Below are positions 22,068 to 36,426 of a stretch of 64,000 nt of DNA, in pieces. This DNA is from an uncultured Candidatus Saccharibacteria bacterium. Its GTDB lineage: Bacteria > Patescibacteriota > Saccharimonadia > Saccharimonadales > CAYVSP01. Numbering within the stretch: position 1 is the first letter of the stretch; each line of letters opens with the position of its first letter. The DNA is taken from NCBI GenBank assembly GCA_964584265.1, contig CAZOZI010000002.1:2340-66339 (forward strand), given 5' to 3'. Made by a program: the position numbers and the translations under genes. Under the pieces are notes generated by a model. That model had not been told where the DNA came from, searched no databases, and saw only the letters and a list, made by a program, of their open reading frames with translations.

Positions 22068-22943
22068 TTAGGCGTGCTGTTCCATATTTTTTAGGCGAGC
22101 AATACGCTCATCAATTGGTGGATGAGTGCTGAACAAACTAGCTAAACTGTGACCCTTTAGAGGATTAGCAAAGAATAAGTGTGCTGTTGAAGCATTCTGG
22201 CGTTTAAGTACGCTGCCGGTTTTACCGATTTTGGTCAGAGCACTCTCCAGACCCTCTGGGTAACGAGTTGTTAAAGCGCTAGTAGCATCAGCCAAGTACT
22301 CACGCTGGCGCGAAACCGCTAATTGGATGAGTGTGGCAACAATGGGTGCCAGTATTGCAGCTGCGATGCCAAGGATAAGAAATAACTGATTATTATCATT
22401 ATCGTCATCATGACGAAACCACGTCATCCTAAGCATGATATCGGCAAACAAGCTCACCACAGCTACCAGTGCGAAAGCTAGTATAGCTACCCTTATGTCA
22501 TAGTTCTTGACGTGCCCTAATTCATGGGCAAGAACGCCTTCTAACTCCTTATCATCCATGATATCAAGCAGACCACTGGTTACGGCGACCGAGGCGTGTG
22601 ATGGATTACGTCCCGTGGCGAAGGCATTGGGCGCGGGATCATCCATGATATAAATTTCCGGCGTTGGCAAACCGTCTGTTATGGCCAGATTCTCGACAAT
22701 TCTATACAAACGCGGATTGTCGCGTTTAGCTATTGGTCGTGCCTGGTTTACCGCTAAAGCCAATCGACTACCAGACAAGTAGGTAATTGTTACATAGATA
22801 ATAGCCCCAATTAAAACATACGGTGTTATGGCGGGATTACCAATGTAGCCGGCAAATATCCAACCAACAAGAGTTACGAACGCAACAAACAACACCATCA
22901 TTATTACTGTTTTTCGTTTGTTACTAGCTATCGAACTATACAT
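22068..22943 (-). CDS. htpX: M48-family zinc metalloprotease HtpX
   Basis: HELGHVKNYD zinc motif and the TM topology typical of HtpX. Confidence 0.9.
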   Translation of the reverse strand: MYSSIASNKRKTVIMMVLFVAFVTLVGWIFAGYIGNPAITPYVLIGAIIYVTITYLSGSRLALAVNQARPIAKRDNPRLYRIVENLAITDGLPTPEIYIMDDPAPNAFATGRNPSHASVAVTSGLLDIMDDKELEGVLAHELGHVKNYDIRVAILAFALVAVVSLFADIMLRMTWFRHDDDNDNNQLFLILGIAAAILAPIVATLIQLAVSRQREYLADATSALTTRYPEGLESALTKIGKTGSVLKRQNASTAHLFFANPLKGHSLASLFSTHPPIDERIARLKNMEQHA

Positions 22944-22974
22944 AGACTATGTGACGGTGAAAGAGTTAAGGTTG

Positions 22975-23532
22975 TTAGAATTTTACATCTGTCGGTTCAG
23001 CAATGGCGGCTTGTTCATTCTCACCAACTTCAAAGAATTCGCGTGCTTTAAAGCCGAGCATACCGGCAAATATACTCGTGGGGAAAACTTTGATTTTGGT
23101 GTTCAAGTCTCTAGCAGCACCATTGTAAAAGCGCCTGGAAGCCTGGATTTTGTCCTCGGTATCCACTAATTCATCTTGTAGCTGTTTAAAGTTCTCGTTG
23201 GCTTTGAGCTGTGGGTAGTTCTCGGCAACCGCAAACAAGCTTTTGAGTGCAGCCTGGAATTGATTTTCGGCCTTAGCAGCATCGGCAGGTCCCTGAGCTT
23301 TAAGCGTATTGGCCCTAGCTTCCGTAACTTTTTCAAACACTTCTTTTTCGTGCGATGCATAGCCTTTGACAGTATTTACGAGATTTGGGATAAGGTCAGC
23401 TCGTCTTTTCAATTGAACGGTTATATCACTCCATGCCTCGTCAACACGAACATTATTACGGACCAAGCCGTTATACATAACTACACCAGCAAGTATCAGA
23501 ACAGCTAGAACGACCAGAATAACCACGAGCAT
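22975..23532 (-). CDS. lemA: LemA family protein
   Basis: N-terminal TM followed by NGLVRNNVRVDEAWSDITVQLKRRADLIPNLV, the LemA signature. The lemA-htpX pairing is common. Confidence 0.85.
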   Translation of the reverse strand: MLVVILVVLAVLILAGVVMYNGLVRNNVRVDEAWSDITVQLKRRADLIPNLVNTVKGYASHEKEVFEKVTEARANTLKAQGPADAAKAENQFQAALKSLFAVAENYPQLKANENFKQLQDELVDTEDKIQASRRFYNGAARDLNTKIKVFPTSIFAGMLGFKAREFFEVGENEQAAIAEPTDVKF

Positions 23533-23589
23533 TTTATTCCCCCTAAATTACTCCTTAATTATATCACCGAAGCATTGAAAAACATTGCG

Positions 23590-23625
23590 ATAAAAAACCG
23601 GTTCGTGAGAGGATTCACGAACCGG
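23590..23625 (-). terminator. Intrinsic terminator (minus strand)
   Basis: CCGGUUCGUGA-loop-UCACGAACCGG (11-bp stem, 23598-23625) followed on the minus strand by UUUUUUAU. Confidence 0.55.
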
Positions 23626-23709
23626 AAGAGGAAGAACAATACAAGACCCCGCCAAATTTTGCCCACTGGATTGGCAAAATTTCGGGCGGGGTTGCTATTA
23701 GTTCTGACG

Positions 23710-23730
23710 TGGTGGGCGAGGTGGGACTTG
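23710..23730 (-). repeat. 21-nt direct repeat of the tRNA-Leu(UAA) 3' end (att-like)
   Basis: tggtgggcgaggtgggacttg is identical at 23710-23730 and 23863-23883. The flanking bases differ on both sides. Confidence 0.85.
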
Positions 23731-23862
23731 CCTTGCCTTAAGGCAACTTCCGACATGCCACTGGCATTTCAGAAGCTTCGGGTCCGGGGAGTGCCACAGG
23801 CACTCCCGTTCAAGTCCCCCTGATCAGCTAAAATGCTCCACTTTTCAGTGAAACAATTTAGC

Positions 23863-23950
23863 TGGTGGGCGAGGTGGGACTTGAACCCACAAGGCTTATT
23901 CAGCCAACGGATTTTAAGTCCGTCGCGTATACCAATTCCGCCACTCGCCC
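23863..23950 (-). tRNA. tRNA-Leu (anticodon UAA), CCA encoded
   Basis: Type II tRNA: acceptor GGGCGAG/CUCGCCC, anticodon arm ACGGA-CUUAAAA-UCCGU, long variable arm GGCU-GAAUA-AGCC, T-arm GUGGG-UUCAAGU-CCCAC. Confidence 0.9.
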
Positions 23951-24450: not shown

Positions 24451-24672
24451 TTACTTATATTTTTTCCTCAGCAATTCTTTCTGTTGGCCCGACTTTAAGA
24501 AGTTCTCAAGCATTGCTGCGGCAGATCTATCCTTGCAAGCTCTGGTTTCAAGCAGCTCCCAGGGTATATAACCCTTGGTTGATTTTACCTTACCGCTGTT
24601 GTGAAGTCTAAGCCTATATTCTACGTTTACTGTACTGCCGATGTATAAATCATCGTTAAATCGACTCTTCAA
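24451..24672 (-). CDS. GIY-YIG nuclease-domain protein, N-terminally truncated or degenerate
   Basis: DDLYIGSTVNVEYRLRLHNSGK...PWELL...SAAAMLENFLKSG matches the YIG / R / H-N / E core. The GIY strand is missing: an in-frame stop lies 9 codons upstream and the start is TTG. The stop codon abuts the 5' end of tRNA-Cys. Confidence 0.6.
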   Translation of the reverse strand: MKSRFNDDLYIGSTVNVEYRLRLHNSGKVKSTKGYIPWELLETRACKDRSAAAMLENFLKSGQQKELLRKKYK

Positions 24673-25308: not shown

Positions 25309-25345
25309 CAATAAAACCAAAATCGTGAGGGGATTCACGATTTTG
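25309..25345 (-). terminator. Terminator-like hairpin, homologous to the one at 23598-23625
   Basis: CAAAAUCGUGA-loop-UCACGAUUUUG (25318-25345), followed on the minus strand by GUUUUAUU. It shares the core cgtgaGRGGAttcacg with 23598-23625, while the stem base is changed in a compensatory way. Confidence 0.45.
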
Positions 25346-25433
25346 AGAGGAGAGGGCTTGATTTGATAATGAAAATTGCTGAGCAAATTTATTTTGTCAG
25401 CAATTTGGTTGTCAAATCATCACACCTCGACGA

Positions 25434-36207: not shown

Positions 36208-36225
36208 TGGTGCGCGAGAGAGGAC
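36208..36225 (-). repeat. 18-nt direct repeat of the tRNA-Leu(CAG) 3' end (att-like)
   Basis: tggtgcgcgagagaggac is identical at 36208-36225 and 36340-36357. Confidence 0.85.
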
Positions 36226-36339
36226 AGCGCTCCGGCTTTGCGCGGAGCTAACCTCCTCGTTCGCTGACGCTCACTTCATGGAGCTTCAAGAATCTATCAT
36301 ACCAGTCCTACTTCCGACCACAAGGGTCTGAACTAGGAC

Positions 36340-36426
36340 TGGTGCGCGAGAGAGGACTTGAACCTCCATGAACCGAAGTCCACTAGCTCCTGAAGCTAGC
36401 GCGTCTACCAATTCCGCCACTCGCGC
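36340..36426 (-). tRNA. tRNA-Leu (anticodon CAG), CCA encoded
   Basis: Type II tRNA: acceptor GCGCGAG/CUCGCGC, anticodon arm CUAGC-UUCAGGA-GCUAG, long variable arm, T-loop UUCAAGU. Confidence 0.9.

Follow-up and report, generated by a model that had tools for sequence, protein, structure and literature searches.

The window, a stretch of 64,000 nucleotides from a Saccharibacteria (TM7) genome, carries an intact gene for tRNA-Leu(UAA) on the minus strand, followed by a 132-nt insert without any ORF. A preliminary description, made from the sequence alone, had reported a 21-nt duplication of the 3' end of this tRNA; the 21-mer TGGTGGGCGAGGTGGGACTTG was indeed found to be exact at both 23710-23730 and 23863-23883, with flanks that differ on both sides. 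The copy termed R1 represents the last 21 nt of the functional tRNA (C56 to A76, CCA included). A match to the 21-mer was obtained in 0 of 100 shuffled versions of the window, and its sole other near-match is the 3' end of tRNA-Leu(GAG), which shows three mismatches. At window positions 24451-24672, about 500 nt from tRNA-Leu and adjoining a tRNA-Cys gene, lies an ORF of 73 aa that encodes a GIY-YIG nuclease domain (E = 1.4e-10). The following features were assigned to the locus:

23863-23950, minus strand: intact tRNA-Leu(UAA), the probable integration target (ARAGORN; Rfam RF00005, 63.4 bits)
23863-23883, minus strand: R1, CAAGTCCCACCTCGCCCACCA, running from C56 in the T-loop to the CCA end, attL-like side (exact repeat)
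23827-23862, minus strand: terminator-like hairpin GCTAAATTGTTTCACTGAAAAGTGGAGCATTTTAGC directly after CCA, GCTAAA..TTTAGC around CACT-GAAA-AGTG (terminator scan 23855-23834, TTTT tail)
23808-23826, minus strand: spacer TGATCA (23821-23826), then arm S5, GG-GGGACTTGAAC (23808-23820) (inverted repeat)
23787-23807, minus strand: hairpin 1 with a perfect 9-bp stem and the 3-nt loop TGT (sequence; family variants)
23776-23786, minus strand: unpaired conserved linker CGGACCCGAAG (CCGG(A/G)CCC identical in all type-A copies)
23747-23775, minus strand: hairpin 2 with ATGCC-AGT-GGCAT at its top (folds; repeat)
23731-23746, minus strand: hairpin 3, TTGCC-TTAA-GGCAA (23733-23746), and GG (folds; family comparison)
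23710-23730, minus strand: R2, second copy of the 21-mer, attR-like side (exact repeat; fold)
23598-23709, minus strand: ancestral tRNA trailer consisting of CGTCAGAAC, hairpin A, GTTCTTCCTCTTCC and terminator hairpin B with loop GAATCCTCTC (homology; terminator scan)

The insert had been described as hairpin-dense, and all four hairpins listed for it are present. Folding of the 153-nt minus-strand stretch gave -75.6 kcal/mol as compared to -47.5 ± 4.2 kcal/mol for shuffled sequences (z = -6.7); when the tRNA and the insert were folded together, z was -8.0. Furthermore, positions 23808-23818 repeat 11 nt of the tRNA T-arm (GTTCAAGTCCC) perfectly in inverted orientation, a feature which the preliminary description had missed; arm S5 corresponds to T-arm positions 53-63 in inverted form. 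With the CAGG preceding it, S5 pairs with R2, the first 8-12 nt of which form the closing stem, and pairing with the T-arm of the tRNA itself is also possible. With RNA as well as with DNA energy parameters, the S5:R2 pairing closes the three inner hairpins to a cloverleaf. This stem comprises 8+3 bp in the window and up to about 18 bp in the related loci L047 and L101. It is irregular in that AAC faces AGG in a bubble, an A is bulged in the window, and the consensus AGG[C]TGGG has a bulged C. In full-length copies the two arms are about 90 nt apart, an arrangement corresponding to the inverted site pair of a folded single-strand att site.

The top of hairpin 2 repeats the GCC-AGT-GGC motif of hairpin 1 in the window; the hairpin of relatives differs in sequence here, its stem changes being compensatory and its loop GAC(C/A)..GGA. 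The right end of the insert, conserved as (A/G)AGG, is formed by hairpin 3 and the adjacent GG. As folded strand, the tRNA-sense strand is mildly favored: it folds better in 12 of 16 copies, G-U pairs number 25 versus 17, and DNA-parameter folds reached -29.9 kcal/mol for this strand versus -27.9 kcal/mol for the other one.

Related modules behind tRNA genes of Saccharibacteria

A scan with the tRNA 3' part yielded 92 loci, almost all of them from Saccharibacteria or Saccharimonadales, and about 100 related loci were compared in all. S5 and hairpin 1 were found directly behind tRNA-Leu(UAA) in 11 of the 92 species loci (L005, L020, L021, L023, L028, L040, L047, L049, L059, L062 and L091), nine of which are full-length; two further loci among the 92, L065 and L069, contain remnants. 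Additionally, a scan with the type-A pattern identified the module on eight metagenome contigs (L094-L101). With the exception of L096, all related copies lie directly behind a tRNA gene. They share the order tRNA-CCA, terminator-like hairpin, short spacer, S5, hairpin 1, further hairpins, (A/G)AGG and R2; this second tRNA 3' end begins at C56 or A57, about 90 nt of hairpins lying between it and S5. A hairpin occupies the terminator position behind CCA in every related copy and is flanked in most of them by an A-tract and a T-tract, resembling a bidirectional terminator. The consensus of S5 is GCCAGG[C]TGGGACTTGAAC; GGGACTTGAAC shows little or no variation among 17 distinct copies. The modules fall into at least three subtypes (A, B and C), which have S5 and hairpin 1 in common and differ in the downstream part.

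No prior description of such a module was found in the literature searched, and a search of Rfam 15 at gathering and permissive thresholds together with ARAGORN returned no family, tRNA or tmRNA call for the insert (best matches besides the tRNA itself E = 0.6-8, far below threshold). A weak Rfam match to 'permuted tmRNA' (E = 3.6) extended over the tRNA end and a hairpin and was dismissed. Three pattern scans of IMG/VR gave 0, 0 and 4 matches, the latter four being coding sequence without the module; in GenBank phages, blastn matched only the tRNA and detected no phage-borne copy of the module. As far as the literature searched shows, the modules constitute a hitherto undescribed, apparently mobile family specific to Saccharibacteria.

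The fold of the module is conserved beyond its sequence. Eight pairs changed on both sides were identified by RNAalifold in 11 type-A copies. For hairpin 1, 15 distinct stem variants were found, each with 8-9 of 9 positions paired; at its top, GCC-NGT-GGC hardly varies, TTC/GGA in one type-B copy being the exception, and the lower five base pairs are variable. Among 17 distinct copies of hairpin 1, both-side changes occurred at seven of the nine pairs. The fraction of paired cells was 96.7% as compared to 78.7% in shuffles and at most 52% with slid partners. Of 500 shuffles, none attained the observed covariation score, the share of paired cells, the count of cells changed at both partners or that of further pair types; two attained the number of pairs changed on both sides.

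S5 is also tied to the host tRNA. A stretch of 11-18 nt of S5 is complementary to the tRNA, and its duplex with the 3' part of the host tRNA has an energy of -17 to -30 kcal/mol, versus -7 to -13 kcal/mol for shuffles. S5 co-varies with the T-stem of the host: ACAGG lies opposite CCTCT in L043 and GGGG opposite CCCC in L100. The terminal AAC of S5 is invariant despite facing AGG inside the element, where it is unpaired; it is complementary to G53-T54-T55 of the tRNA, which would be the recombinant junction.

As an alternative reading, the preliminary description had considered a small structured RNA that ends in a tRNA-like CCA terminus, and it had suggested looking for homologues of the insert in related genomes. 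The same module was found in many species, and compensatory changes bear out the conserved fold. The tRNA-like terminus was not borne out: the tail ACCTCGCCCACCA is sharply shortened in seven copies (L028, L049, L059, L091, L095, L097 and L101) and hence does not constitute a conserved functional end; furthermore, a terminator lies upstream of the module and a conserved promoter is lacking. Retained in all cases is CAAGTCCC, the part of R2 which closes the stem.

The modules are apparently mosaic. Those of L028 (812-923) and L097 (793-906) are identical over about 75 nt, but in hairpin 1 both strands differ at the five variable base pairs (GCCAGCGCC/GGCGCTGGC versus GGGTTTGCC/GGCAAACCC). The exchange of hairpin 1 between otherwise identical modules suggests module shuffling, not point mutation.

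Origin of the insert

The preliminary description had proposed that tRNA-Leu(UAA) loci of relatives be compared for an empty site. Such a site, with one copy of the repeat, is present in L078, which among the syntenic species is nearest to the window (73% nucleotide identity over htpX-lemA): the tRNA is followed by a single R and then by the trailer CGTCAGAACTAAC, as found behind R2 in the window. The alignment blocks of the window and L078 overlap on exactly 21 nt, and synteny was observed on both sides. The sequence 3' of R2 in the window directly follows the tRNA in L078 and also in L065; R2 is probably the displaced original tRNA end. The ancestral trailer, with homologues in L078, L065 and L098, lies outside the new insert. 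The empty site of L078 could also have arisen by a precise R1-R2 deletion.

The host tRNAs are Leu(UAA), Leu(CAA) in L094 and L100, Leu(GAG) in L043 and Lys(CUU) in L099. All four have the T-arm GTTCAAGTCC in common, and the module was found only behind tRNAs of this type. R2 matches the 3' end of its own host tRNA at 21 of 21 positions in L099 and L043 and at 20 of 21 in L100; it starts at C56 or A57 in these three loci and ends at CCA in L099 and L043. The module of L094 is without R2. Repeats matching each host tRNA require either co-evolved lineages or a target-copying mechanism.

Within the synteny group htpX-lemA-tRNA, the module occurs only in the window (type A) and in L021 and L040 (type B). 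S5, hairpin 1 and the linker of the window are identical to those of L059, the flanks of which show no nucleotide similarity to the window. As far as these sequences indicate, the distribution of the module is out of step with host relatedness.

Multiple and decayed copies were also observed. L059 (1475-1836) contains 2.4 tandem units of 152 nt, each with terminator, module and 8-11 nt of R, at 100% identity; they represent either a real array or an assembly effect. In L062 (5670-6760) a second module with a 0.8-kb cargo is located 1.1 kb behind the first. This second unit has an insertion of about 100 nt inside hairpin 1, and its cargo comprises two opposite-strand ORFs of 166 and 83 aa between terminator and module, for which no Pfam or PHROG match was found. 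Remnants lie behind full copies in L098 and L069. L020 and L040 repeat the terminator as well, resulting in a repeat of about 60 nt that a simple 21-nt crossover does not predict.

At the window locus, the insert lies between exact direct copies of the 3' part of its target tRNA, and the tRNA is kept intact. We conclude that 23731-23862 together with one copy of the 21-mer probably forms a 153-bp, gene-less, non-autonomous integrated element with attL/attR-like flanks, belonging to a Saccharibacteria-specific family. The preliminary description had arrived at attL/attR around a miniature element as one of its readings, and the empty site, the recurrence behind four tRNAs and the tandem and decayed copies all agree with it. 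A unit of 153 bp is very small for mobile DNA.

Alternatively, the module could be a structured RNA beneficial to the host, a regulator or decoy derived from the tRNA 3' trailer, in which S5 pairs with the T-arm or R2 and the repeat serves the structure. The strong fold of the insert, alone and with the tRNA, fits this explanation, as do the preference for the tRNA-sense strand, the complementarity of S5 to the tRNA and the compensatory changes with invariant loop and linker residues, which would also be expected of a functional RNA. However, a terminator separates the tRNA from the module, no promoter is conserved, and Rfam gave no match. Only about 14% of the species with tRNA-Leu(UAA) have the module, the closest relative does not, many copies are shortened or decayed with an unconserved CCA tail, and copies occur behind four different tRNAs and in tandem. 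A host-beneficial RNA is therefore considered unlikely.

Another possibility is that the insert is the scar of a larger integrase-bearing island or prophage in the tRNA gene, of which an internal deletion spared only the terminator end and the attR-proximal end. The second unit of L062, still holding 0.8 kb and two ORFs between terminator and module, is in line with such a scar; decayed remnants are common, and other tiny scars with duplicated tRNA halves exist (L043 6300-6349 and window 36208-36339). However, the layout of terminator and module within 150-170 nt recurs at at least 15 independent loci in different species and behind different tRNAs. Boundaries shared in this way would not result from independent deletions, and the 'heavily deleted island' of the preliminary description is thus less likely. 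Moreover, an integrase-bearing version was absent from the 100 loci and from the IMG/VR and GenBank phage sequences searched. Altogether, we regard the scar of a larger island as quite unlikely and retain the integrated mini-element as the preferred explanation.

A recombinase was searched for in the surroundings of the copies. Using tblastn with E. coli XerD, no match was obtained in about 730 kb of loci (about 100) and the window, a result to be read with the restriction that the query sequence may be inexact and that tblastn may miss distant integrases. Pfam analysis of 17 neighboring proteins (those adjacent to the module in ten related loci and two further L062 ORFs) revealed housekeeping domains or no match and no recombinase. 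The genes adjoining the copies are unrelated housekeeping genes; apparently, neither the element nor its surroundings encode an integrase.

That the repeat arose by chance, by local tandem duplication or as an artefact of assembly, and has no wider meaning, is very improbable: the L059 tandem units, 100% identical, could be assembly-derived and a Logan contig ends inside R2, but the 21-mer occurred in no shuffle, the insert sequence is unrelated to the tRNA body, and homologous modules are present in more than 20 independent assemblies. The Logan contig concerned (SRR9179560_1630882, L001), which is the only public contig with the exact lemA product, corresponds to window 22707-23727 and ends 18 nt into R2. 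This end could reflect a branch of the assembly graph, with occupied and empty sites in one sample, or low coverage. The contig, of 1 kb, was the single match for the neighboring genes, the upstream gene giving none, and is insufficient to demonstrate a polymorphism.

Several other candidates were rejected. A plus-strand tRNA or a split or permuted tRNA was dismissed since no T-stem is present and ARAGORN was negative, and a self-cleaving ribozyme since neither an Rfam match nor core motifs were found. For a group II intron or an IS605/IS91/IS110-type end the insert is too small, and a 21-nt repeat is not produced by such elements. Retro-insertion or a casposase-like staggered cut, resulting in a 21-bp target duplication, would explain host-matched repeats; no reverse transcriptase or Cas1 was seen. 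Since L020 and L040 have longer repeats and S5 co-varies with the host, a tRNA end copy carried by the element fits at least as well as a target duplication.

Comparison with known systems and possible mode of integration

It is a known general phenomenon that integration into tRNA genes leaves tRNA fragments (PMC9897764). As in islands and prophages of tRNA genes, the direct repeat at the locus consists of the tRNA 3' part from the T-loop to the 3' end, the intact tRNA is regenerated with a displaced tRNA fragment at the far end, and both empty sites in relatives and tandem accretion are found. In contrast to these elements, the insert measures 132 nt instead of kilobases, contains neither an integrase nor any other gene, holds, about 90 nt from attR, an inverted copy of the target that is conserved, and occurs as one module at four tRNAs. 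A 'T-loop sublocation' class of tyrosine-integrase integration in tRNA genes was reportedly defined by Williams in 2002.

CIMEs are integrase-less, att-flanked and non-autonomous elements which are kilobases long and derived from known ICEs. MITEs carry element-borne terminal inverted repeats, produce target duplications of 2-10 bp and are dispersed in the genome. Like both, the module is short and non-coding, has att-like repeats as flanks and is presumably moved by an enzyme encoded elsewhere. It differs from MITEs by its 21-nt repeat and by its occurrence within the 64 kb as one clear and one doubtful copy, each behind a tRNA.

The single-stranded genome of CTX-phi forms a forked hairpin of about 150 nt from two oppositely oriented dif-like sites about 90 bp apart, which is recombined by the XerCD proteins of the host (PMC3089051). 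The module resembles this attP(+) in its paired inverted sites about 90 nt apart, perhaps in the unpaired positions of the stem, and in belonging to an element without its own recombinase. Furthermore, integrated CTX-phi leaves a functional, an inverted and a direct copy of the site, corresponding to the order R1 ... S5, about 90 nt, R2. The target of the module, however, is a tRNA T-arm and not dif, no phage genome is attached, and the 90 nt between the arms consist of conserved hairpins; single-stranded DNA and a Xer-type enzyme are assumed here by analogy only.

Similarities to integron attC sites comprise the structured imperfect palindrome of about 60-140 nt with a fold conserved rather than its sequence, the terminal inverted motifs ending in AAC and GTT, and perhaps the bulged bases. 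As with integron cassettes, units occur in arrays at one site with small cargo or none. Unlike integrons, the module is associated with neither intI nor attI, its target is a tRNA gene, and its flanking repeats comprise 8-21 nt (about 60 nt in two loci) as compared to GTT. CTTGAAC of S5 fits the integron consensus RYYYAAC at only five of seven positions.

Based on the repeat, the fold and these parallels, we propose the following course of integration. The element would carry a replacement tRNA 3' end (R), its own terminator and a cloverleaf module of about 110 nt, the closing stem of which is formed by S5, as inverted T-arm/acceptor copy, paired with R. It would recombine with the tRNA-Leu(UAA) gene in the T-loop, presumably at or just 5' of C56. 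Integration would thereby leave an intact tRNA ending in R1 and followed by the terminator of the element, and it would move the original 3' end (R2) with the original trailer 153 nt downstream. A site-specific recombinase, presumably encoded elsewhere, would recognize the T-arm duplex. In the folded tRNA-sense strand, which may be DNA or RNA, the S5:R stem may mimic this duplex, as in single-strand attachment sites; AAC of S5, unpaired in the element, would become complementary to GTT of the tRNA at the new junction.

It is conceivable, although we consider this more specific proposal less likely than not, that the modules are a new class of integrase-less mini-cassettes, in which the att site exists only in the single-stranded tRNA-sense strand and a chromosomal recombinase exchanges one strand with the tRNA gene in the manner of CTX-phi or attC. 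S5 would then fold onto the element's copy of the tRNA 3' end and restore the duplex that T-arm and acceptor form in the target gene. How DNA is acquired by Saccharibacteria, ultra-small epibionts whose genomes are reduced, is little understood. If the mini-cassette proposal were true, single-stranded DNA taken up by naturally competent Saccharibacteria would be captured at tRNA genes and stacked in arrays.

More generally, a conserved gene-less insert in at least four tRNA genes and many species points to an integration system acting from elsewhere in the genome, and the element-borne inverted copy of the tRNA T-arm points to its principle of recognition. If the folded-strand model holds, it would extend single-strand site-specific recombination to tRNA targets and to the Candidate Phyla Radiation, and it would offer a compact landing-pad logic for genetic tools in hard-to-engineer organisms. 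Even if the modules were a family of scars only, they would explain a recurrent annotation oddity, namely partial tRNA 3' ends behind intact tRNAs.

Other tRNA-associated inserts

Another tRNA-Leu gene of the window, tRNA-Leu(CAG), is located at 36340-36426 on the minus strand and is followed by a further candidate:

36208-36339, minus strand: probable second, more degenerate insert behind tRNA-Leu(CAG) (repeat; fold z = -3.7)

An exact 18-nt copy of the 3' end of this tRNA, GTCCTCTCTCGCGCACCA, lies at 36208-36225. The 114 nt between the two copies (36226-36339) start with a hairpin and contain a degenerate S5-like motif only; neither the family HMM nor the covariance model matched 36208-36339. 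This region is probably a second insert of the same kind as 23731-23862, its membership in the family being uncertain.

The ancestral trailer of tRNA-Leu (23598-23709) was found to be a conserved structured module itself. A second hairpin with the loop of trailer hairpin B (GAATCCCCTC) occurs at window 25317-25346. In L065, the trailer module sits between the tRNA and the remnant of the cloverleaf module; because of this position, it may represent the terminator part of an older insert.

L043 (6151-6349) shows a tRNA-fragment scar of another kind: 62 nt downstream of tRNA-Leu(CAG), the 3' half of this tRNA is repeated over 50 nt, starting from the anticodon stem. The acceptor strand TATCCGC of this copy mismatches the 5' strand of the tRNA.
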